Assembly (NCBI GenBank): GCA_965204535.1
Contig: CBDBEV010000001.1
Span: 1,376,001-1,440,000 of the forward strand
DNA length: 64,000 nt
Origin: a bacterium
GTDB lineage: Bacteria > UBA8248
Direction of reading: 5' to 3'
The translations under genes and the position numbers were made by a program. Under the pieces are notes generated by a model. The model did no database searches. It saw only the letters and a list, made by a program, of their open reading frames with translations, and had not been told where the DNA came from. This document shows positions 12,061 through 62,242 of the stretch, piece by piece (within the stretch, counting starts at the first letter, position 1; the number at the start of each line of letters is the position of its first letter).

Positions 12061-14631
12061 CTAGCGAGCCGCTTCTTCTACCGTTACCCGAGGGCTGCTG
12101 AGAAGTATTTCCGTTCGACGATTTTTGGCGCGGCCCTCTTCGGTGTCGTTTTTCGCCACCGGGCGGTAAAATGAGTAGCCGGTCGCCGACATGCGTTCAG
12201 GCGATATGTTTTTCGATTCCAGGAACTTGACGATGGCGATAGCGCGCGCGAACGATAGTTCCCAATTCGAAGGATAGCGTCTGAGCAGATTGCCTCTGAT
12301 GGGCCGATTATCCGTATGTCCTTCTACCTGTATTATTTTGTCTTTTTGTTTTCCGAGAAATTCCGCAATCTTAGAGAGCGCCTCGCTTCCCTTTTCCCTG
12401 ATCCTGGCGCTTCCCAGATCAAACAAAAGATTGTTCACGAAGGTCACGCGGAGCAAGTCTTCAGTTCTTCGCAGCGTGATGGATTGTTCCTGTAGCTTGC
12501 TGTCCATCTTCTTCAGGTCTGATTCCAGTTGCTTGGCCCGTTCGGCTTCTTCGCGTGCCCTTTTCTCCAGAACTTTAGAGCGTGCGATTGCCAGCGTGTG
12601 TTTTTTGATCGTTTCCGCCAGGCTCAGGTTTGTCTGATCCAGCTTGTTCCTGATGAGGTCGGCCACGGAGGTTTTCTCCGCGATGAGTTGGCTCATCTCT
12701 TGAACCTGCGCCCGGAGGAGTTCCCTGGCTTTTCCGAGACGGTTTGCCTCTTCGGCCCGCTTTCTTGCGAGTTCGGCGTTTCGGGTCTTTGCTTTTTCCG
12801 CCTCCGTGCGCGTCTTGCGTTCAGTATCGAGAGTTTTCCGGGTTTCTTCGAGCGCGAGTTCGAGGTTCTGGGTTTTGGTTCTTCCCTTTTCGATGGTGGC
12901 GTTTTTCTCCGAGATGAGTCGGCTCATCGCCTGAACCTGGGTATTGAGGATTTCCCTGGTTTTCTCGAGGCGCTTCATCTCCGCGGCCCGGTTTTGCGCG
13001 AGTTCGGTTTTTTGCGCGGTTGATTTCTCGGCCTTAGCCGGCGCCTTGCGCTGACTGGCGACGCTGCGTTTTTTCGCCCTTGCCTGCTCGTCCTTGATGA
13101 GTTGCCCCATCTTTCGGGCCTGGGTCTCGAGAATCTTTCTGACTTGTTCGAGGCGCTTTATCTCTGCGGCCCGTTTTTGGGCGAGTTCGGTGGTATCTTT
13201 ATTTGATTTCTCAACCTTCACCCTTATCTTGCGCTCGGTTTCGAGGGCCGCCTGGATTTGCTTGAGCGCGCGCTCGAGACTTTGGGTTTTTGATTTTTCC
13301 TGTTCGATGTCGGCGCTCTTCTTCGCGATGAGTTGACGCATGATTCCAACCTGGGTCTCGAGGCGCTCTCTGGCTTTTTCGAGACGCTTTATCTCCACGG
13401 CCCGTTCGCTGGCGAGTTTGATGTTCTGCTGACTTGCTTTTTCGGCCTTGGCGCGCATCTTGCGCTCGGCATCGAGGGCCGCCTGGATTTGCTTGAGCTC
13501 GAGTTCGAGTTTTTGAGTTTTTGCTTTTTCCTGCTCGATGTCCGCGCTTTTCATCGCGATGAGTTGGCGCATCCTGCGGACTTGCGTCTGGAGAAGCTCC
13601 CTGACTTTTTCGAGACGCTTCATCTCCCGGGCGCGGGTGCTGGCGAGTTGGACGTTTTGCCGATTTGATTTTTCCATCTCGACCCGCATCTTGCGCTCGT
13701 TCTCGAGCGTGGTCTGGATTTGCCTGAGCGTGCGCTCGAGTTTTTGGGCCTTCGCTTTTTCCTGTTCGATGTCGGCGCTTTTCTCCGCGACGAGCTTGCT
13801 CATCTTTTGAGCCTGTGCCTCGAGTCCTTTTATCTCCTCGGCCCGCGCCTTACGCTCGTTTTCGAGAGTTGCCTCGATTTGCTTGAGCGTACGCTCGATA
13901 TTTTGATTCTTCACCGCCCCTTTCTCGATGTCGGCGCTTTTCTCGGCGATGAGTCGGCTCATCTTTTCAGCCTGGGTCACCAGGCGCTTTACCTCTTCGG
14001 CCCGATTCCCGGCGAGTTGTATGTTTTGTTGATTCGCTTGTTCTGCGTCGGCGCGCATCCTGCGCTCGTTATCGAGGGAGCCATGGATGATGTCGAGCGT
14101 GACTTTGAGGCTTCGGATTTGGGCTTTTCGCTGCTTGATGTCGGCGTTTTTCTCGGTGATGAGCCGGCTCATCTCTTTCGCTTGGGTCTCAAGGCGTTCT
14201 ATGTCTCCCGCCCTCTTGGCGGCGAGCTCGAGATTTTGCTGGTTTGATTTTTCCGTCTCGGCGCGCGTCTTGCGCTCGCTTTCGAGGGCGGTCTGGTTTT
14301 CCTGGAGCGCGGACTCAAGGCCTTGGATTTTCGCTTGGCCTTGCTCGATAGCGGCGTTTTTCTCGGTGACGCGCCTGTCCAGCTCTTCCATTTGTGTCTT
14401 GGCGGAGGCGACCTCTTTTGCGAGCCGGGATCCCAGACTCTTCATCTTCTGGTCTATGTCTTTGAAGCCCTGGATGTCGCTCTTGAGCTTGGCGGAATTC
14501 TCTTTTTCTTTTGAGAGTTCAGCTTCTCTTTGCTGCAGCAGCTCTTTTGTCGATTGGGATTGCTGGGCGAAATATCCTGTCCCGCCGAGCAGAACGGCGA
14601 TAATCGCCCCTATGGAGATGCGAAGCCCCAC
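12061..14631 (-). CDS. Membrane-anchored long coiled-coil repeat protein with a C-terminal OmpA/MotB peptidoglycan-binding domain
   Basis: N-terminal hydrophobic helix; about eight EKxAxIE repeats; C-terminal LFDLGSA, VEGHTDN, SNWELSFARA and NRRTEI. Confidence 0.88.
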   Translation of the reverse strand: MGLRISIGAIIAVLLGGTGYFAQQSQSTKELLQQREAELSKEKENSAKLKSDIQGFKDIDQKMKSLGSRLAKEVASAKTQMEELDRRVTEKNAAIEQGQAKIQGLESALQENQTALESERKTRAETEKSNQQNLELAAKRAGDIERLETQAKEMSRLITEKNADIKQRKAQIRSLKVTLDIIHGSLDNERRMRADAEQANQQNIQLAGNRAEEVKRLVTQAEKMSRLIAEKSADIEKGAVKNQNIERTLKQIEATLENERKARAEEIKGLEAQAQKMSKLVAEKSADIEQEKAKAQKLERTLRQIQTTLENERKMRVEMEKSNRQNVQLASTRAREMKRLEKVRELLQTQVRRMRQLIAMKSADIEQEKAKTQKLELELKQIQAALDAERKMRAKAEKASQQNIKLASERAVEIKRLEKARERLETQVGIMRQLIAKKSADIEQEKSKTQSLERALKQIQAALETERKIRVKVEKSNKDTTELAQKRAAEIKRLEQVRKILETQARKMGQLIKDEQARAKKRSVASQRKAPAKAEKSTAQKTELAQNRAAEMKRLEKTREILNTQVQAMSRLISEKNATIEKGRTKTQNLELALEETRKTLDTERKTRTEAEKAKTRNAELARKRAEEANRLGKARELLRAQVQEMSQLIAEKTSVADLIRNKLDQTNLSLAETIKKHTLAIARSKVLEKRAREEAERAKQLESDLKKMDSKLQEQSITLRRTEDLLRVTFVNNLLFDLGSARIREKGSEALSKIAEFLGKQKDKIIQVEGHTDNRPIRGNLLRRYPSNWELSFARAIAIVKFLESKNISPERMSATGYSFYRPVAKNDTEEGRAKNRRTEILLSSPRVTVEEAAR

Positions 14632-31361: not shown

Positions 31362-31393
31362 GCCGCTGCCCGGGGAACCGGGCGGCGGTTTTT
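31362..31393 (+). terminator. Rho-independent terminator after rpoZ
   Basis: ccgctgcccgg/ccgggcggcgg stem followed by TTTTT. Confidence 0.75.
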
Positions 31394-31560
31394 GTTGGGA
31401 ATGAAATCTTTCAGTTGACGACCCCTTTTTGCCTGTCGATTCATCACCCTTTCTTCAAAACCGATTTTTCCTGCATAGGTTTTCCCGCTCTCGCGTTGAG
31501 GGGTTGTTGAAAAAGCTCCTGATTTCGTGATTCGGCGTATGTAGCCAACCGGGGAGGGGG

Positions 31561-31863: not shown

Positions 31864-32005
31864 GCGGGAGGATTTACGGTTTTCGTAGGGGTCAGACATA
31901 TATGTCTGACCTATACTTGTGCCGCTGATGGGATCGCCTATGCGCAATCGGGCTCTGTCCCGCCCCGCTCACCCTGAAAACCAACCCCCCCTACCCCCCC
32001 TTGTC

Positions 32006-33518
32006 GGGCCTGTTGAAAAACCCCTGGTTTTGTGATCGTATGGATGTATCCCCCCTCGCCCGAGATGGGAGATTCCCCGATGTTGGACCGCAAGAGGCGC
32101 GGGCAGATGGAATTGTTCGTGGCCGGTTCGCTGGAGCAGTTGATTCCCGAAGATTACATATTGTTCCGGGTGAACCGCGTACTGGATTTGAGCTGGCTGC
32201 GCGAGGAGGTGGCGGAGTGTTATTGCGCGGACAACGGTCGACCGGGGATCGACCCCGAAGTGGTGGTTCGGTTGATGCTGGCGGGCCTGCTGCTGGGCCA
32301 CGTGCACGACCGGCATCTGCTTCGCGAGGCGCAGGTGAACCTGGCGATCCGGTGGTTCATCGGTTACGAGCTGCACGAGGAGTTGCCGGATCATTCGAGC
32401 CTGACGCGGATTCGCCAGCGGTGGGGGGAGGCGCGGTTCAAGGAGATATTGCGCCGCACGGTTCAGGCGTGCCTGGAGGCGCAGGTGGCGAAGGGGGAAG
32501 TGGTTCACCTGGACGCGTCTTTGATACGCGCGGACGTGAGTTGGGAGAGTCTGGCGGCGCGCCACGCGGAGAAGGTGGTGCGGGAGAACGACTCGGCGGA
32601 TGAGACGGGGAAGAAGGGCGGCGGGGGTTCGGGGCCGGTGAGCCGAACGGACCCCGACGCGCGCCTGGCGCGCAAGAGCGCTCGGGCGGGGTTCGAGCCG
32701 AGCTACAAGCACCACGCGGTGGTGGACGATGAGCGGGGGGTGGTTCTCGACGTAGAGGTGACGGAGGGGACGTTGAACGAGCGGGAGATGATGGAGCCGC
32801 AGTTGGATGCGGTTTGCGAGCTCACGGGTCGCGCGCCCGCGGTGGTGACGGCGGATTCGGGCTATGCGTACTCGAAGGTGTACGGCGCATTGGAGCGGCG
32901 TGGCGTCGCCGCGGTGATTCCGGCGAAGAAGGAGCCTTCCCAGAGCCGTGTTCCGCTGCAGTTGTTCCGCTACGACGAGCGGCACAAGGTGGTGAAGTGT
33001 CCGGGCGGCAAGACGCTGCGCCCCCGGAAGGAGACGGAGCGGGGGCGCTACTATGGTTCGAGGACGCGCGATTGCGCGGGCTGCGCGCTGAGGTCGGATT
33101 GTCTTCCCAAGTCGCACACGAGCAGGACGGTGCTGGTTCCGCATGAGTATCCGGCGCTGTTGCGCGCGCGTCGGCGGCACGCGCGCCGGGGGGAGGAGGA
33201 GGGCCGGCTGTGGCGCCGCCACATGTCGCGTTCGGAGGGCTACCACGGCGAAGCGAAGAGTCGGCACGGACTGGCGCGGGCGGTGCGCCGGGGCCTTGCG
33301 AACATGAGGATCCAGGCCTACCTGACGGCGACTGCGGTGAACCTCAAGCGGCTCGCCGCCGCTGTTGCGGCGCGTTTATTCGCGCTCTGGAGGGCCTGGG
33401 CCGCCCGGAGACGCCGTCTGCGCGTTCCTCGCGGCCTCACGCGCCGATTGGGCTTCCTCTCCGCCGCTGCGTGAGCCGCCATACCTCCCGCTTCAAAACG
33501 GGGTTTTTCAACAGCCCC
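32006..33518 (+). mobile_element. IS1182-family insertion sequence, copy 1 (1513 bp)
   Basis: Terminal IRs GGGCCTGTTGAAAAA and TTTTTCAACAGCCCC; 5-bp direct repeat TTGTC at 32001-32005 and 33519-33523. Confidence 0.92.
32080..33474 (+). CDS. IS1182-family DDE transposase
   Basis: GRPGIDP, LPDHSSLTRIRQRWG, HLDAS, TDPDA, TADSGY and NLKRL; start set at ATG 32080. Confidence 0.92.
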   Translation: MLDRKRRGQMELFVAGSLEQLIPEDYILFRVNRVLDLSWLREEVAECYCADNGRPGIDPEVVVRLMLAGLLLGHVHDRHLLREAQVNLAIRWFIGYELHEELPDHSSLTRIRQRWGEARFKEILRRTVQACLEAQVAKGEVVHLDASLIRADVSWESLAARHAEKVVRENDSADETGKKGGGGSGPVSRTDPDARLARKSARAGFEPSYKHHAVVDDERGVVLDVEVTEGTLNEREMMEPQLDAVCELTGRAPAVVTADSGYAYSKVYGALERRGVAAVIPAKKEPSQSRVPLQLFRYDERHKVVKCPGGKTLRPRKETERGRYYGSRTRDCAGCALRSDCLPKSHTSRTVLVPHEYPALLRARRRHARRGEEEGRLWRRHMSRSEGYHGEAKSRHGLARAVRRGLANMRIQAYLTATAVNLKRLAAAVAARLFALWRAWAARRRRLRVPRGLTRRLGFLSAAA

Positions 33519-33750
33519 TTGTCAGGGGGGTATGAAAAGGCGACGCCCGCCGCGGGTAGAGGGGCTTTTGTTTTTTCTTGCTCTCTGACAAGGGGGTCTT
33601 TCTTTTTTACCCCCCTGACAAGGGGGGGTAGGGGGGGTTGCCTTTATCCCCTGATAAGGGAGGTTGGGGGTCGAACGCGACCGGAGAGGGAGCGTTCGCT
33701 CCCTTGACAAAGACTTTCTCAACAACCCCCTCAAGGGGAAGTGAATTGCA

Positions 33751-34914
33751 TCATTCCCTTTCTTGCCGCTCCCTCAGGAACGCCCCCACTCTTTCGAGAC
33801 CGGCCTCGATGTTTTCGACCGAGTTGCAGTAGGAAAACCGAAGGAACCCCTCTCCACCCGGCCCGAAATCCGCTCCCGGCGCCACGGCCACGCCGGTGGC
33901 TTCGAGAATTTCTTTTGCCAGTTTCAGGCTGTCCGCCCCGTACGCGCGCGCATCGGCGAAGGCGTAGAACGCGCCCGTCGGCTCATGAAGCATTTTCAGG
34001 CCGATGTCCTCCAGGCGCGCGAGCATGATCTTGCGCCTTTCGTCATAAATCCCGCGCATGCGCTCCGCCTCGGGCACGCCGTCCTTGAGAGCGGCGATCG
34101 CCGCGTGCTGGACGAAGGAATTGGGCGACACGAAATAGTTTTGCTGCAGTATCTCCAGCGGACGGACGTATTCGGGAGGCACGATGAGATAGCCGACCCG
34201 CCAGCCCGTCATGGCGAAATACTTCGAGAAACCGTTGATGACGAAACAATCCTCCGTGAAGTGGAGCGCCGTGTATTCCGCATCCTCGTAGCTGAGTCCG
34301 TGATAAATCTCGTCCGAGACGATGGGAACTCCCAACTCGGCGAGCGCCGCCATGTCCCCTCGCGAGAGCGACGCGCCCGTGGGATTGGACGGCGAGTTGA
34401 TGAGGATGGCCCTGGTGTTCTCGGTGATGCGCTCGCGGACGGCCTCGGCCTTGAGCGCGAAGCCGTGCTCCGCATGGGTAGGGACCCGCACGGGTCTCCC
34501 GCAGGCGGAGAGGATGAAAGCCGGGTAGCAGGCGTAGTGGGGGTCTGAAATGACAATCTCATCGCCCGCATCCACGAGAACGGAGAAGAGCATCAGCAGG
34601 CCCGGGCTCGTGCCGTTCGTCACCACCACGCGTTCGGGAGATACGGATACGCCGTATTTGTGGTTGTAGAATTCCGCGATCGCCTCGCGCAGTTCGGGAA
34701 TCCCCAGAGCTGCCGTGTAGTGGGTGTGGCCGGCGCGCAGGGCGTCCTCGGCGGCGCGGGTGATGACCCCGGGCGTATCGAAATCGGGCTCTCCCACTTC
34801 CAGGTGGATAACATCGCGGCCCTGCGCCTCCAGTTGATGGGCGCGCTCCATGATGTCCATCACCAGGAAGGGCTTGATGCCCGAGATGCGCGCCGGGATG
34901 GAAAATTCCTTCAT
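33751..34914 (-). CDS. PLP-dependent class I aminotransferase (aspartate aminotransferase-like)
   Basis: VGEPDF, NSPSNPTG, SDEIY and GFSKYFAMTGWRVG. Confidence 0.93.
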   Translation of the reverse strand: MKEFSIPARISGIKPFLVMDIMERAHQLEAQGRDVIHLEVGEPDFDTPGVITRAAEDALRAGHTHYTAALGIPELREAIAEFYNHKYGVSVSPERVVVTNGTSPGLLMLFSVLVDAGDEIVISDPHYACYPAFILSACGRPVRVPTHAEHGFALKAEAVRERITENTRAILINSPSNPTGASLSRGDMAALAELGVPIVSDEIYHGLSYEDAEYTALHFTEDCFVINGFSKYFAMTGWRVGYLIVPPEYVRPLEILQQNYFVSPNSFVQHAAIAALKDGVPEAERMRGIYDERRKIMLARLEDIGLKMLHEPTGAFYAFADARAYGADSLKLAKEILEATGVAVAPGADFGPGGEGFLRFSYCNSVENIEAGLERVGAFLRERQERE

Positions 34915-43322: not shown

Positions 43323-43470
43323 GAAGATTCCTCACTTGAGATGATGCGCGTTTCTCATATCTTGGTTTTGGTAGTCCAAAGCTAGAACTTTGCGGCGGGC
43401 GTGTCAATTGAGGCAGAGTGATCGGGATTTTTCGCATTTTCGCGCGCTTGGCCGCCGGGGAGGAGACGGG

Positions 43471-45336: not shown

Positions 45337-46323
45337 CTATCCCTGGTGCGGCAGCGAGAGGTTTAATGTTTCATCTATGCCGGTGCGGGCGATGGGCGCG
45401 GCGCTCTGGGTTTCCTCGTCGTTGCACAGATGCTCGTAAAAAATAATATCGAAAACGGTGCGGCTCATGGGGGAGGAGGGGGAGAGGCGGCTGATGATGC
45501 TCGAAGCGGCCCGGCCCAGTCCCCTCGGAACCGTCAGGACTCTCGGCTGTTTCCCGATCCTCCGTCCGGCGCGGATGAGCAGTTCGCGGTAGAAGAGAGT
45601 CTCCGGCCCCACGAGGTTCATTCGCGCAAGCGGCGCTTCGGGATGAAGAATCGCCCACTCGATCGCGCTTATCACGTCGCCCAGGTATATCGGCTGTATC
45701 CGCACCGCGCCTCCCGCCACGAGGGGGACGACCGAGGAGCTAAGCAGCCGTTTTATCTGGTGCATCGCCGGGGTGTCGGCCCCCAGGATCATGGGCACGC
45801 GTAAGATCGCGCCCGAGGCGAAATTCTCCCCGATCACATCCTCGGCCTGGCCTTTCGTCCGTAAATACTCGTTATTCGACCCGGAATCCGCGCCCGGAAA
45901 ACTTAAATATACGAAGGACTTCACGCCTTGCGCCCGGCTCGCCTCGGCGACGTTTTTCGTGGTGAGCAGGTTCGCCCCGAGCAGGGAATCGCCCGCTCTC
46001 GGAACCAGCGAACCCGCCAGGTGGGCCACGCAGTCGGCGCCTTCCAGGGCTGGCTCAAGGCTTTCTGCGTCGTCGTAGTCCACCTGTATCAGTTCGGCGG
46101 GGAGATCGCGCAGGTTCGTACTCCGGCCCAAGTCCCGGACGAGCGCGCGCAGGCGAACCGGCCCGATAGCCGGATTCCCGCCCAGGCGTTCGATGAGCGC
46201 TTTGCCGACGGCGCCGTTCGCGCCCGTGATGGCGATGTCGATGGATTTTCTCCCGTGAACCGATAAGGCGTCCGTGCGCAGCGGGTTTTGAGCGTCCGCC
46301 GCGATCCGAAAAGCGGGGTTCAC
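45337..46323 (-). CDS. NAD(P)-binding epimerase/dehydratase-like (atypical SDR) protein
   Basis: ITGANGAVG, YLRTK and IQPIYLGD; start uncertain. Confidence 0.85.
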   Translation of the reverse strand: MNPAFRIAADAQNPLRTDALSVHGRKSIDIAITGANGAVGKALIERLGGNPAIGPVRLRALVRDLGRSTNLRDLPAELIQVDYDDAESLEPALEGADCVAHLAGSLVPRAGDSLLGANLLTTKNVAEASRAQGVKSFVYLSFPGADSGSNNEYLRTKGQAEDVIGENFASGAILRVPMILGADTPAMHQIKRLLSSSVVPLVAGGAVRIQPIYLGDVISAIEWAILHPEAPLARMNLVGPETLFYRELLIRAGRRIGKQPRVLTVPRGLGRAASSIISRLSPSSPMSRTVFDIIFYEHLCNDEETQSAAPIARTGIDETLNLSLPHQG

Positions 46324-46486
46324 CCTTCTAGGCGGGTAGGTTTGTTCCCTGCTTAGGGCGGCCCCGCAAAAAACGGCCGGGCATCAAGCCCGGCCTCGCT
46401 CTCTGGAGACGCTGTTCTCGTTGGACGGCTCGTTTGCAATGAGCGCCGTTCGTATGTCACGACTCGCGATTTCTTGACGCAGTTTT

Positions 46487-46993
46487 TCAATGGCATCCGA
46501 AAGTCGCAGGCATGTATACTACTTTCGCAATGCTCCCATTCTCAACGAGATAGTCCATGACAATCCCTCTCGTCGGGTATTGTTTCGACCGGACGCATTC
46601 TCCCTTCGCCTCCACTTTCGGGCGGTGCGCCTTGTCGATGTCGTAACGCGCATCCTTTCGGATATAGGTCCCGAGAAACCAACCTGCCACCGTTCTCCTG
46701 ATCGCCCTCTTGTTGAGGAATCGGAACACGTCATTTCCGACATCACTCATGCAACCCGGGTCACGAAACTCGATTGTTCTCACATCCTGATGAGTCGTAT
46801 GCCTCATGTTCGACGGCATAAAGTACAGGTTGGTTTCCTGATAAGACTGCGAGTACCAGCACTTCTTTCCTTTTCCATTCTGAATGAAACCCTCTTTGTT
46901 GAAGCGATGGCTGTATCTGTCCGCGCCTATAGCCACCTGCGCGAACGATACGAACGCAAGCACCAAACCCATAACCAAAACCATCTTTTTCAT
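46487..46993 (-). CDS. Hypothetical secreted protein, 168 aa
   Basis: GAGGAG RBS, MKKMVLV...AIGA signal peptide, four Cys; visibly lower GC than neighbours. Confidence 0.75.
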   Translation of the reverse strand: MKKMVLVMGLVLAFVSFAQVAIGADRYSHRFNKEGFIQNGKGKKCWYSQSYQETNLYFMPSNMRHTTHQDVRTIEFRDPGCMSDVGNDVFRFLNKRAIRRTVAGWFLGTYIRKDARYDIDKAHRPKVEAKGECVRSKQYPTRGIVMDYLVENGSIAKVVYMPATFGCH

Positions 46994-47108
46994 CTTACTC
47001 CTCTTCTAGCAAAAACACAGGTTATTCACGTTTTTCGATCTGCCGACACCTAGGTTCGCACCTTCTCACAGTTCAACAGTATAGGCTCTCTCTGTTGTGG
47101 TCTCCGGC

Positions 47109-48341
47109 CTACACTGTGAGCAGTTCGTGGGTCGGCGCGGTCATCTTCTCGATGGGCAGCCCGTGCGTGCAGGACCCGGCGCAGCTCTGGTGGCTGCAGG
47201 TGAGGCACGCCGATGCGCCCGCGCCCAGCATGGAGTACTCGGCCTTGGCGAATCGCACATCCTCGTAATCCGTCGCATACATGCGGGTGCGGAGCACGTC
47301 CGCGATGGGCACGTTCTCAGGACACGCGCCCGCGCAGTCGTTGCACGCATGGCGGCAGTAGGAGGTTCCGTTCAGCCGCGCGTATTTCTTCAGGATCGGC
47401 ACCTCGCGGCGCGATATCTTCTTCCAGCCCGAAGCGCCCACGAACTCGGTGATGTTGTCCTTGCTCGTCATCGAGATGATGAGCGAGTCCACGTTCGGGT
47501 TCGAGAGCACCCAGCGGAAGGCGGCCTGGGAGAACGTGGCGCCTCCTTTTTCATAAGGCCGCATGTCGTTCAGGCGCGCGCCCATGAGCGTCTTCATGGC
47601 GATGACGCCGATGCCCTTGGCCTTCGCCCGCGCGAGCGCCAGCGGCAGTTTCGGGAACCTGGCGATGAAGTCGAACCCGCGCGTGAAGCGCTGGTAAAAC
47701 GCCGGGTCCTGCCCGAAGTTGTAGGCGATGAGATACACGTCCACGACGCTGTTCTCGGTGCAGTAATCGAGGCACTGGATCAGGTTGCCCGCATGGCCCG
47801 ACATGCCCGAATAGCGGATTTTCCCCTGTTTTTTCGCGAGCGCGACGAACTCGCTCCACTCGGGGTTGCTCATCCTGTCCACGTCGTTCACCGCGTGGTT
47901 GAAATAGACGTCCACGTAATCGGTCTGGAGTTTCTGGAGGCTCTGCTCTAAAGAGCGCATCATCGACTCTTTCTTGTCGCTCGGTCCGGCATGCGTCTTG
48001 GAGGCGATGTAGACCTTGTCGCGCTTGCCCTTGAGCGCGCGGCCGATGGTGGTCTCCGATTCCCCCCAGGAGTAGCTCTCGGCGGTGTCGAAATAGTTGA
48101 TGCCCAGGTCGAGGGCGTGGCGTACGAGGTCCTCCTCATCGGAGCCGAGCCGGCTGCTGCCGAAGGAGATGTCCGACATCTTGATGTCCGTCGTGCCCAG
48201 CGTGACGTAGCGGCGCACCCGGTTCTGCGCGGCGTCAGAGTCCACGGCGCGCGCGAAGGGCAGGAGTCCCGCGCCCAGACCGGCGAAGGCGCCTTTGCGG
48301 ATAAAATCGCGTCTCGGAATGTAGTCGGTATGATGGGGCAT
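47109..48341 (-). CDS. Tat-exported aldo/keto reductase with a C-terminal Fe-S domain
   Basis: RRDFIR signal, GINYFDTAESY, LQTDYVD, CRHACNDCAGACP and CLTC..CAGSC. Confidence 0.9.
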   Translation of the reverse strand: MPHHTDYIPRRDFIRKGAFAGLGAGLLPFARAVDSDAAQNRVRRYVTLGTTDIKMSDISFGSSRLGSDEEDLVRHALDLGINYFDTAESYSWGESETTIGRALKGKRDKVYIASKTHAGPSDKKESMMRSLEQSLQKLQTDYVDVYFNHAVNDVDRMSNPEWSEFVALAKKQGKIRYSGMSGHAGNLIQCLDYCTENSVVDVYLIAYNFGQDPAFYQRFTRGFDFIARFPKLPLALARAKAKGIGVIAMKTLMGARLNDMRPYEKGGATFSQAAFRWVLSNPNVDSLIISMTSKDNITEFVGASGWKKISRREVPILKKYARLNGTSYCRHACNDCAGACPENVPIADVLRTRMYATDYEDVRFAKAEYSMLGAGASACLTCSHQSCAGSCTHGLPIEKMTAPTHELLTV

Positions 48342-55112: not shown

Positions 55113-55385
55113 GCCGCCTGGAGGTTGTTGAAACAGTCCCGGAACTCTGGATTTGTCGTATGTAACCGACCTACGAGAGAGAAAAATCACTCCCCCTTTG
55201 AGGGGCATGGCCAAGGAAGAAGGAAGTAAATTCACTCCCCCCTTGAGGGGGAGTCGATGAAGCCGAGCGGTTTATGCGAAGGCTGAATCGGTGGGGGGTA
55301 AAATGCGTTTTATCGCCATTCCGAATCATACCCCCCACCGATTCGGTTTCGGGTTTACACCCTCACCTCATCGACTCCCCCTCAA

Positions 55386-56901
55386 GGGGCTGTTGAAAAA
55401 CCCCTGGTTTTGTGATCGTATGGATGTATTCCCCCTCGCCCGAGATGGGAGTTCCGGAGATGTTGGACCGCAAGAGGCGCGAGCAGATGGACTTGTTCGT
55501 GGCCGGCCCGCTGGAGAAGTTGATTCCCGAAGATCACATATTGCGCCAGGTGGACCGCGTACTGGATTTGAGTTGGCTTCGCGAGGAAGTGGCGGAGTGC
55601 TATTGCGCGGACAACGGTCGACCGGGGATCGACCCGGAAGTGGTGATCCGGTTGATGCTGGCGGGCCTGCTGCTGGGCTACGCGGAGGATCGCCGCCTGC
55701 TGCGCGAGGCGCAGGCGCATCTGGCGGTCCGGTGGTTCATCGGGTACAGGCTGGACGAGGATTTGCCGGATCATTCGAGCCTGACGCGTATCCGTCAACG
55801 CTGGGGGGAGGAGCGGTTCAAGGAGATATTTCGGCGCACGGTTCAGTCTTGCGTGGAGGCGAAGGTGGCGAAGGGAGAAGTGGTTCACATGGACGCGTCT
55901 TTGATACGCGCGGACGTGAGCTGGGAGAGTCTGGCGGAGCGCCACGCGGAGAAGGTGGTGCGGGAGAACGACTCGGAGGATGAGACGGGGAAGAAGGGCG
56001 GCGGCGGGGGTTCGGGTCCGGTGAGCCGAACGGACCCCGACGCGCGCCTGGCGCGCAAGAGCGCTCGGGCGGGGTTCGAGCCGAGCTATAAGCACCACGC
56101 GGTGGTGGACGACGAGCGTGGGGTGGTTCTCGACGTAGAGGTGACGGAGGGGACGTTGAACGAGCGGGAGATGATGGAGCCGCAGTTGGATGCGGTTTGC
56201 GAGCTCACGGGTCGCGCGCCCGCGGTGGTGACGGCGGATAGTGGTTATGCGTATTCGAAGGTGTACGGCGCATTGGAGCGTCGGGGGGTCGCCGCGCTGA
56301 TACCGGCGAAGAAGGAACCCACCCAGAGCCGGGTGCCGTTGCAACTGTTCCGCTACGACGAGCGGAATGAGGTGGTGAAGTGTCCGGGGGGCAAGACGCT
56401 GCGCCCCCGGAAGGAGACGGAGCGGGGGCGCTGGTATGTATCGAGGACCCGCGATTGCGCGGGTTGCGCGCTCAAGGCCGATTGTCTGTCGGCGTCTCGC
56501 ACGAGCAGGGCGGTTCTGATTCCGCACGAGTATCCGGCGCTGTTGCGCGCGCGCCGTCGCCACGCGCGCCGGGGGGAGGAGGAGGGCCGGCTGTGGCGCC
56601 GCCACATGTCGCGTTCGGAGGGCTATCACGGCGAGGCGAAGAGTCGGCACGGACTGGCGCGGGCGGTACGCCGGGGTCTTGCGAACGTGAAGATCCAGGC
56701 CTACCTGACGGCGACTGCGGTGAACCTCAAGCGGCTCGCCGCCGCTGTGGCCGCGGGTTTATTCGCTCTGTGGCGGGCCTGGGCCGCCCGGAAACGCCGA
56801 ATGAGCGCATATCGCGGCCTCACGCGCCGATTGGGCTTCCTCTCCCAGGCCGCGTGAGCCGCCATACATCCCGCTTCAAAACGAGGTTTTTCAACAGCCC
56901 C
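55386..56901 (+). mobile_element. IS1182-family insertion sequence, copy 2 (1516 bp)
   Basis: Perfect 15-bp IR GGGGCTGTTGAAAAA; 5-bp direct repeat CTCAA at 55381-55385 and 56902-56906. Confidence 0.93.
55460..56857 (+). CDS. IS1182-family DDE transposase
   Basis: Close paralog of 32080-33474 with one extra Gly codon. Confidence 0.92.
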   Translation: MLDRKRREQMDLFVAGPLEKLIPEDHILRQVDRVLDLSWLREEVAECYCADNGRPGIDPEVVIRLMLAGLLLGYAEDRRLLREAQAHLAVRWFIGYRLDEDLPDHSSLTRIRQRWGEERFKEIFRRTVQSCVEAKVAKGEVVHMDASLIRADVSWESLAERHAEKVVRENDSEDETGKKGGGGGSGPVSRTDPDARLARKSARAGFEPSYKHHAVVDDERGVVLDVEVTEGTLNEREMMEPQLDAVCELTGRAPAVVTADSGYAYSKVYGALERRGVAALIPAKKEPTQSRVPLQLFRYDERNEVVKCPGGKTLRPRKETERGRWYVSRTRDCAGCALKADCLSASRTSRAVLIPHEYPALLRARRRHARRGEEEGRLWRRHMSRSEGYHGEAKSRHGLARAVRRGLANVKIQAYLTATAVNLKRLAAAVAAGLFALWRAWAARKRRMSAYRGLTRRLGFLSQAA

Positions 56902-57076
56902 CTCAAGGGGGGAGTGAATGGCAATCTCAAGGGAAGAGTGAATCCCGACCTTCTGGATTATTCACCGTAGGGACAGGTCGCGACCTCGGACAGGCCCCTG
57001 TGCCTGTCCGTTACAGATGCGATGCGGTTTTGATCGTCATGACGGCGGTGGTCAATTCCGAGCAGGGAGGGCTTTT

Positions 57077-57475
57077 TCAACAATCCCCGCCGGAAAGGGG
57101 CTTGCTGACTTCGATCAAGAACCCGTTCGGGTCCTTCAGCATGAACATGCGCACGCCCCAGGGGGCGTCGAGTGGCGGGAAAACGGTTTCCGCGCCTTTT
57201 TCCACGAGGACATCATAGGCGCGGTCCACGTCCTCGGGCGAGAGCGTGACGACGACGCCCGAGCCCCTGGGTTCCCGGAGAGGTTCGAGATTCCACTTGC
57301 GCATCTCCTCATCCGGAATCGGCGCGTGGATGACGAGCGAGGTTCCTCCCACGTCATATCGCACGTGTTGTTTCTCCCGGCTCGCTTCTTTCAGTCCCAG
57401 CGTTTCGGTATAAAAACGACACGACGCCTCGTAGTCTTTGGTGATGAGAAAAACGGCGGGCAGCGATTCGAACAA
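57077..57475 (-). CDS. VOC/glyoxalase family protein
   Basis: FYTETLGL, PWGVR and KDPNGFLIEV; the stop codon lies inside an IS-like inverted repeat. Confidence 0.88.
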   Translation of the reverse strand: MFESLPAVFLITKDYEASCRFYTETLGLKEASREKQHVRYDVGGTSLVIHAPIPDEEMRKWNLEPLREPRGSGVVVTLSPEDVDRAYDVLVEKGAETVFPPLDAPWGVRMFMLKDPNGFLIEVSKPLSGGDC

Positions 57476-61084: not shown

Positions 61085-62193
61085 AGAAACTTATTCCATC
61101 TCTTCTGGCCGCCGTCATCATCCTGGGCGCAGCGCCCGCGCATCCCGCAAACTGGCGGCAGGCGCTGCCCGGCTATCGCTACCAGTTTCCCAGAGACAAC
61201 GGCGCGCACCAGGCGTTCCGCACGGAGTGGTGGTATTTCTCGGGAAATTTGCAGGATGCCGAGGGCGGGAAATACCCCTTCATGCTCACGTTTTTCAGGG
61301 TGGGGCTTCGTCCGGGAGTGCCCCGGAAGTCGAAAAGCCGCTGGGCGCTCCGGAATCTCTATTTCGGGCATTTCTCGGTTCTTGACGCGAAGCGGAAGAA
61401 ACACCGGTTTTCGGAGCGAATCAGCCGGGGCGAACTCGATCAGGCGGGCGCGTCGGAGAAGGGTCTCAAAGTCTGGCTGCGCGACTGGCGCGCCGAAAGC
61501 ACGGGCGGGGAAGGCGAATCTTCGTTCCGTATAAGCGCGGCGGCGCCCGAGATGAAGCTGCGCCTCGATCTGAAGCCCGCGAAACCCCTCGTGATTCACG
61601 GCGAGGACGGAGTGAGCCGGAAGGCGCCGGGTCCCGGACGCTCCTCTCACTATTATTCGTATACGCGGCTTCTCGCATCGGGCGTCCTCGAATTGGAAGG
61701 AAGGAAGATTGAGGTGCATGGAACGGCGTGGATGGACCATGAGTTCGGCTCGAACCAGTTGACGAAGGATCAGGTGGGGTGGGACTGGCTGAGCCTCCAG
61801 TTGTCCGACGGCCGCGATTTGATGTTATATCTCATGAGACGAAAAGACGGGAGCGTGGAGCCCACGAGCAGCGGCACGCTGGTGGAGGCGGACGGCAGCG
61901 CACGGCATCTGCGCCTCGGGGATTTCCGCTTTCAGGGCACGGGTAGCTGGAAGAGCGAGCGAAGCGGCGCCGTCTATCCCATGGGATGGGAAGTCGAGGT
62001 TCCGGCGCACGGCCTTCGCTTGCGGTTGGAGCCTTACGCCCGCGCGCAGGAGATAGAGTCCAAGGGCAGCACGGGCATCACCTATTGGGAAGGGGGTGTT
62101 TTCGCCGAAGGCGCCTCGGGCGAAAAAAAGCCCACGGGGGTGGGCTTTGTCGAGATGACGGGGTACGCTCCCGAGGGACGACCCAAATTCTGA
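61081..62193 (+). CDS. Secreted AttH/CrtC-like lipocalin-fold protein
   Basis: Signal peptide, TEWWYFSG, AWMDHEF, GWDW, YWEG and GFVEMTGY; ATGA overlap with the permease gene. Confidence 0.88.
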   Translation: MKKLIPSLLAAVIILGAAPAHPANWRQALPGYRYQFPRDNGAHQAFRTEWWYFSGNLQDAEGGKYPFMLTFFRVGLRPGVPRKSKSRWALRNLYFGHFSVLDAKRKKHRFSERISRGELDQAGASEKGLKVWLRDWRAESTGGEGESSFRISAAAPEMKLRLDLKPAKPLVIHGEDGVSRKAPGPGRSSHYYSYTRLLASGVLELEGRKIEVHGTAWMDHEFGSNQLTKDQVGWDWLSLQLSDGRDLMLYLMRRKDGSVEPTSSGTLVEADGSARHLRLGDFRFQGTGSWKSERSGAVYPMGWEVEVPAHGLRLRLEPYARAQEIESKGSTGITYWEGGVFAEGASGEKKPTGVGFVEMTGYAPEGRPKF

Positions 62194-62242
62194 TTTTCAT
62201 ACTCCCCTCGGGGAAATGGCTTCGTATGTTTGGAGATGCGAG

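Follow-up and report, generated by a model that had tools for sequence, protein, structure and literature searches.

An IS1182-family element inserts at a fixed position in the palindromic ends of two intergenic repeat families, probably by reading sequence

Excerpts of PMC4923244 and PMC5678879 describe IS1272/TnSha1 of staphylococci, members of the IS1182 family, as elements that target hairpins without a consensus sequence, produce no target duplication, and delete part of the hairpin. Both sources cite Siguier et al. 2015 for the targeting of palindromes by some IS1182 members, and PMC5678879 remarks that this statement came without detailed data. REP palindromes are targeted by IS1397, ISKpn1, IS621, ISPpu9/10, ISPa11, and ISRm19/22 of the IS3, IS110, IS4, IS256, and IS5 families; the same source, consulted in part, gives evidence that the specificity of these IS is borne by the transposase and mentions a palindromic target preference of Tn5 (PMC1525189). 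An IS1182-derived MITE, MITEPye1 of Paracoccus yeei, occurs in 1–3 copies per chromosome that are 96–100% alike (PMC11578231, excerpt). Nothing on IS1182 targets appeared in the excerpts of PMC3196728, PMC3281130, and bioRxiv 2024.06.02.596822, and a literature search mostly outside subscription papers, ISfinder, and supplements returned no report of an IS1182 element changing its targets while keeping its ends, or of insertion into IS256 genes. An earlier sequence-only reading of this DNA had treated IS targeting of REP palindromes as known, which PMC1525189 bears out in the part consulted. Since both REP targeting and palindrome targeting by IS1182 members are already published, the core idea of that reading is not new.

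The window, i.e., the whole stretch of 64,000 nucleotides analyzed here, contains two copies of an IS1182 element (Table 1). Both window proteins exceeded the cut-off of the NCBIfam model for IS1182 (NF033551; 341 and 348 bits, cut-off 270), and Pfam assigned DUF772 and DDE_Tnp_1_6 to them. The element has the features of the family, namely a single transposase, 19-bp ends, duplications of 5–6 bp, and a DDE in an RNase H fold. D161, D275, and E402 (P0001 numbering), likely the catalytic triad, were invariant in 11 aligned sequences, and a four-cysteine insertion was present at about residues 300–372. The predicted structure (pLDDT 90.8, pTM 0.88) was closest in fold to Tn5 transposase (Foldseek E 4.8e-5; Z 16.2, rmsd 5.1, 278 residues aligned), and integrases also matched; a sequence search for a solved IS1182 relative found none.

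Removal of copy 1 together with one TTGTC, which is present on both flanks, restores C7-TTGTCA-G6, and removal of copy 2, flanked on both sides by CTCAA, together with one CTCAA restores a palindromic end of repeat family A, as the sequence-only reading had described. The rebuilt empty sites fold as DNA at −7.9 kcal/mol (copy 1) and −9.8 kcal/mol (copy 2), and the matching places in relatives are intact IS-free hairpins, at L114 and L115 in the case of copy 1 and at L137 in the case of copy 2. The same reading held that the two duplicated 5-mers differ. This has to be corrected: read on the opposite strand, CTCAA becomes TTGAG, and TTGTC and TTGAG both stand behind C6. Both window events therefore have CCCCCCTTG in common.

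Table 1 Features of the two IS1182 copies in the window and of the repeats and cassettes that enclose them.
Feature	Position	Strand	Remark
Lone IS1182-type 19-bp end	31500..31518	+	Opens repeat cassette containing copy 1
Family B repeat arm, ends in C7	31982..32000	+	Left flank of target, copy 1
Left target duplication TTGTC, copy 1	32001..32005	+	
Copy 1 of IS1182 element	32006-33518		1513 bp
Left 19-bp inverted repeat, copy 1	32006..32024	+	Tip is GGGC variant
IS1182 transposase, copy 1	32080..33474	+	ATG start inferred from alignment; open frame from 32032
Right 19-bp inverted repeat, copy 1	33500..33518	-	
Right duplication TTGTC, then A-G6 of family B hairpin	33519..33530	+	Duplication at 33519-33523
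Second end of family B doublet, inverted	33610..33640	+	Unoccupied
Lone IS1182-type end	33711..33729	-	Closes copy 1 cassette
5-bp duplication CGCCT	55115..55119	+	Belongs to older cassette enclosing copy 2
Lone IS end with variant core	55120..55139	+	Copy 2 cassette
Family A doublet	55228..55380	+	End 1 unoccupied; end 2 is target of copy 2
Left duplication CTCAA, copy 2	55381..55385	+	TTGAG on opposite strand
Copy 2 of IS1182 element	55386..56901	+	1516 bp; 91% identical to copy 1
Transposase, copy 2	55460-56857		
Right duplication CTCAA, then G6-AGTGAA end of family A	56902..56918	+	Duplication at 56902-56906
Lone IS end and second duplication copy	57069..57092	-	End at 57069-57087; closes copy 2 cassette

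We searched the genome (4.56 Mb, two contigs; G000) and found 26 copies that retain both ends; another element interrupts 2 of them, and the remaining 24 are whole. This count leaves out 3 short partial matches. Their identity to copy 1 was 90.7–97.4%. When the flanks of all of them were inspected for hairpin context, every copy (26/26) was at a C-run/5–6 nt/G-run site in the palindromic ends of families A and B. What was first seen in the two window copies, site-specific insertion into palindromic repeat ends of two families, thus holds throughout the genome, and the other copies share the palindromic context. A C-run plus 5–6 bases stood at the left of each copy (in one case a stem-broken A arm) and 5–6 bases plus a G-run at the right; the script labels of the 52 junction arms were C-run for 49, broken-stem A for 1, and neither for 2. 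Exact duplications flanked 18 copies (16 of 5 bp and 2 of 6 bp). By sequence, the 5-bp duplications of this genome were TTGTC (4), GACAA (4), TTGAG (4), CTCAA (3), and TTGAC (1), and the duplicated five bases were identical whichever orientation the element took. The other 8 copies had mismatched half-sites, likely reflecting a second cut at a neighboring target or recombination between copies.

By crude gene calls, the genome has 2023 intergenic hairpins with a stem of at least 7 bp, of which 540 are of the C-run/G-run type. If any intergenic hairpin would serve, finding 26 of 26 copies in this type has p ~1e-15. None of the 26 copies was inside the other intergenic hairpins (n = 1483), which include GTAG- and CGTC-type families (type names from an excerpt of PMC3733652); the untargeted families have from tens to more than 100 copies each. 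Both flanks were outside the genes called by a crude gene finder in 25 of the 26 copies, in line with the harmless landing proposed earlier. Among the joints listed in sequencing-run contigs, neither an IS-free allele nor a circle junction was found. Many sequencing runs with parts of the window carry the label sponge metagenome.

Among the 26 copies, the 5′ and 3′ halves of two sequence variants (P0001 versus P0002) assort differently, which gives the copies a mosaic look and suggests recombination between them. Three copies are in tandem at G000:C1:164723-169664, separated by short repeat and end remnants, and similar tandems occur in two relatives, G002 (L037, L041) and G022 (L098, L109). 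The element that interrupts two copies (G000:C2:1234942-1236724 and C2:2823248-2825030) is also IS1182-like but has different ends and a length of ~1.8 kb; it occupies the same insertion point both times, with an apparent 10-bp duplication and an inverted repeat doubled at one end.

Both repeat families form inverted doublets, with ends that read C6-TTGAG-G4 (A) and C6-TTGTC-A-G5 (B). In this genome we counted 164 words of family A (116 with a strict pattern), 69 of stem-broken A, and 296 of family B; 526 of these 529 are intergenic. In B the duplication occupies the middle of the loop, whereas in A it is displaced from the center by one base, and in both families it comes after the C-run without exception, indicating that the register follows the sequence and not the hairpin axis; slipped pairing within the runs may also account for the off-centre register. 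On both strands, the minimal motifs CCCCCTTR and CCC-N7-GGG occur 915 and 8318 times, respectively. The shared motif alone is therefore too common, and longer contacts, DNA shape, or selection must contribute.

Among 61 genomes searched, 23 had a match, and we examined 80 stretches from ten genomes; the matches listed for these included 86 long ones, 84 of them with both ends. In six genomes, elements mostly 80–94% identical to the window element used the same A/B sites, with 109 of 118 arms and 34 of 59 exact duplications among the matches listed and two clear off-repeat sites (L079 and L064). The element of G022 is 75–77% identical and has the same ends, and 37 of its 42 arms were at another palindrome, CAAWCSC-N4-[5 bp]-N4-GSGWTTG. 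None of its 21 copies was in an A or B word, despite 207 such words in G022 versus 26 intact sites of its own type; conversely, the window genome has 33 intact G022-type sites and none of its 26 copies there. Most G022 sites can also be folded into a hairpin with a stem of 7 bp and a loop of 13 nt. The elements of G042, G044, and L233 (63–65% identical) lie within a stretch coding for IGKLLGH, a motif that we take to be integrase-like; Pfam gave no match for two short integrase-like fragments. The G061 element is mostly at yet another repeat.

Of 24 more distant loci from GTDB, 15 had a 5-bp duplication, 11 of these in a WQRC-x-HFMRN-like motif. Of the 106 loci from a narrower search, both ends were present at 57 and a duplication at 25; the distant relatives keep the 19-bp end and the 5-bp duplication, and the WQRC-x-HFMRN coding motif holds 22 of the 25 duplicated sites, which include some near-duplicates and belong to elements ~60% identical to the window IS. 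Pfam assigned both L255 flanks, which match successive parts of the protein, and one of the L252 flanks to a Mutator/IS256 transposase. In a quick tree with a midpoint root, the A/B elements formed one group (support 98) with G022 as its sister (99) and the others outside. Constant ends together with changing targets place the specificity in the protein, as far as can be inferred from these comparisons. Twelve alignment columns track the target class, three of them in loop 217–219 between two strands of the catalytic core. We considered a single specificity loop (residues 213–222), which differs between A/B and G022 elements, and rejected it, as integrase-motif and IS256-motif elements are near-identical there; with two target classes nearly the same in this loop and 12 columns tracking the target, the loop is only a lead.

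The explanation that we favor, and consider probable, is that a Tn5-like dimer reads duplex C5-6 / TTRNN / (A/G)GG, not a folded hairpin, at the fixed position in A and B. The transposase would act as a dimer by cut-and-paste: it would read the symmetric sequence on either side of the cut and cleave duplex DNA with a stagger of 5 bp. The A/B repeats would be favored because their palindromic ends suit the symmetric preference of a dimer, and rarer insertions in genes would probably be removed by purifying selection.

An extruded cruciform might instead be recognized, with the ends joined 5′ of both loops, the loop duplicated, and sequence only tuning the choice. We regard this as unlikely. In its favor, IS1272, an IS1182 member, targets hairpins without a sequence consensus (PMC4923244, excerpt), and a pathway that duplicates only the loop is drawn in Fig. 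13 of PMC5678879 (likewise an excerpt). All 18 duplicated sites in this genome also fold, with stems of at least 6 bp at −6.0 to −10.0 kcal/mol. Against it stand the 1483 hairpins without any copy, sibling elements that ignore one another's hairpins, and the IS256-motif sites of relatives, 12 of 22 of which have a contiguous stem of 0 bp (3–4 bp in the other 10). Exact-duplication insertions also occur at sites with little or no stem, namely the off-repeat sites L079 (−2.7) and L064 (0.0) and a natural variant of A. This stem-broken A retains C6-TTGAG-GG and has lost the long stem; it folds at −1.5 to −5.1, keeping a mini-stem of 3–4 bp at the site, and another hairpin lies alongside.

In the pooled data of five genomes, stem-broken A was used about as frequently as its abundance predicts: 6 exact-duplication insertions were in stem-broken A and 22 in intact A, versus an availability of 246 and 648 words, counts that take in words recreated at IS junctions (p = 0.53; p = 0.17 with a stricter availability count), and a five-fold depletion at stem-broken A is unlikely (p = 0.012). 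The junction arms of the five genomes were broken in 11 of 38 cases, with 27 intact. Lone ends of the element in this genome were at broken A in 7 and at intact A in 2 cases (66 and 108 available, respectively). The whole copies of this genome alone lean toward the cruciform, with 9 at intact and 1 at broken A, where 38% of the sites are stem-broken (p ~0.06 by hand). All of these events are related and drawn from few repeat families, and since cassettes are shuffled, a broken arm could have come after insertion. The earlier proposal of stem-loop or C/G-run recognition thus survives in its second half: C/G-run geometry, taken as sequence, fits best, and recognition of a stem-loop as such is countered by the unused hairpins, the register following C6-TTR, the use of stem-broken A, and the stemless sites of relatives. 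On these sequence comparisons, sequence-read targeting appears probable and hairpin recognition rather unlikely.

It is still less likely that insertion is loose and the pattern arises from selection against gene disruption, or that a host or repeat-associated protein such as a DUF559 nuclease marks or nicks the repeats. The near-complete confinement of A, stem-broken A, and B words to intergenic DNA agrees with the former, and the only DUF559 gene of the genome, which has family B repeats on its flanks with IS copies in two of these, agrees with the latter. However, intergenic DNA makes up about a quarter of the genome and is rich in other repeats without insertions, and the base-exact register and the lineage-specific targets within one genus implicate the transposase. 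The DUF559 gene (G000:C2:1233602-1233919) is between two IS copies that face inward onto it, and the three together are a possible composite transposon. The single Y1-transposase gene of the genome is flanked by GTAG-type repeats, which are abundant and without insertions.

The least credible alternative, which we judge very improbable, is that the target imitates the junction that two ends of the element would form tip to tip (CCCC-N5-GGGG), is chosen by the end-binding surface, and is rebuilt by insertions: the ends do start with G4 and finish with C4, junctions refold as hairpins, and some of the three tandem copies on C1 are beside end remnants, but G022, G042, G044, and alphaproteobacterial relatives have equally G-rich tips and targets without C/G runs, which rules it out as a general rule.

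The IS end motif occurs 436 times in the genome, 384 times outside the 26 elements, versus ~23 expected. Of 355 lone ends, 69 had their outer side exactly at an A/B half-site (129 when a deviation of one base was allowed) and 18 at a G022-type half-site. Among 84 facing pairs of lone ends, 18 had an exact duplication versus 2.5 in shuffles, and this excess indicates that some cassettes moved as MITEs. The cassettes are MITE-like in having IS-type ends, no gene, target duplications, and empty sites in relatives, and they are mosaics without a common interior.

Both window copies are inside cassettes bounded by lone IS ends. At the copy 2 site, 15 of 21 relatives' loci were empty, 5 had a cassette with the CGCCT duplication, and 1 had no data; the second duplication copy is CGCCG in the window versus CGCCT in the 5 cassette-bearing relatives. 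For copy 1, 14 of 21 loci were empty, 4 were filled, and 3 had no data. The variant core at the left end of the copy 2 cassette occurs once in this genome and at the same site in G016 and G012. The interiors of this cassette differ among relatives, with the change directly behind the end in G012 and G017. G002 and G011 share the variant of the end closing the copy 1 cassette, and in G011 the interior next to this end is different. At window sites near 23.9, 44, and 58.2 kb, the flank and end are kept and the interior differs among five relatives. Repeated hot-spot insertion or gene conversion could also produce fixed ends with changed interiors.

The 19-bp end is self-complementary at 14 of 19 positions. 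When mapped onto intact repeats, outer junctions were in register in 22 of 31 cases versus 21 of 164 controls, and inner junctions gave no clear signal in 16 usable cases. In a profile scan, 28 of 313 inner junctions were in register within one base (19 G022-type and 9 A/B) at low background. This hints at cutting at the inner edge of the 19-bp end; most inner junctions fit no in-register half-site.

Several further differences among relatives were observed in the window. The copy 1 cassette is itself inside another insertion (31390-31500 and 33730-33760) with GGGAATG/CATTCCC inverted ends, which is absent from 14 relatives. Positions 43400-43420 are empty in the window, and G016, G011, and G014 carry there a different insertion of 0.5–0.7 kb with its own ends and likely an ATTGAGG duplication, which contains IS1182-ended cassettes. 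At 62190-62230, likewise empty, a cassette of 175 bp with IS1182 ends is present in G011; its duplication is TCGGG, and it occupies a short C-run/G-run palindrome that belongs to no repeat family. A segment of ~780 bp at 46280-47110 is unique to this genome among six compared, has a lower GC content, and contains a 168-codon frame on the minus strand. The 856-codon gene at 12061-14631 has internal repeats spaced 159–231 bp, and its length varies among relatives.

A broader proposal, which we put forward tentatively and hold to be doubtful as a whole, is that these elements form a retargetable clade in which the ends and the 5-bp cut are fixed and a few transposase residues re-aim insertion, with an IS256 coding motif, an integrase-like motif, and at least three unrelated repeat palindromes as targets. 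The 19-bp end would also be cut at its inner edge, leaving lone ends and swapping repeat cargo, so that the transposase would act as a shuffler of the lineage's intergenic repeat mosaics.

The phenomenon is real, strong, and ordinary in kind; its useful twist is that the clade provides comparable enzymes that differ in target. For deciding between structure and sequence recognition by IS1182 enzymes, a question left by the published work, this genus offers natural controls in its stem-broken targets and in sibling transposases, 60–90% identical, that have the same ends and different strict targets. Swaps of the protein or of short segments could test structure versus sequence directly. The results point to a compact single-protein transposase with a strong and changeable site preference and suggest a path from landing in other mobile genes to harmless host repeats. 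The cassettes, fixed in their ends and variable in their contents, are relevant to the origin of REP mosaics.

IS1272/TnSha1 share with the window element the family, palindromic targets, and insertion in either orientation. The window element differs from them in duplicating 5–6 bp at a fixed sequence register, in its strict consensus, and in losing nothing in 18 of 26 copies. The IS1182 members attributed to Siguier et al. likewise have palindromic targets with approximately the loop duplicated, whereas the stem-broken sites and siblings of the window element favor the sequence reading. As in REP-targeting IS, the copies are at a fixed point in extragenic palindromic repeats (26/26 here and the 109 of 118 arms in six relatives); unlike them, the window element belongs to IS1182, uses two C/G-run families, and avoids the RAYT-associated GTAG and CGTC REP types. 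MITEPye1 resembles the cassettes in being non-coding and intergenic, with IS1182-type ends and target duplications, but the window genome has hundreds of lone ends around a mixture of repeats, and at a single site this mixture varies from relative to relative. The transposase of Tn5/IS50 is likewise an RNase H-fold DDE enzyme with an insertion domain; its identity to the window transposase is 8–12%, and its 9-bp target is loosely preferred, whereas the target of the window element is strict with 5-bp duplications.
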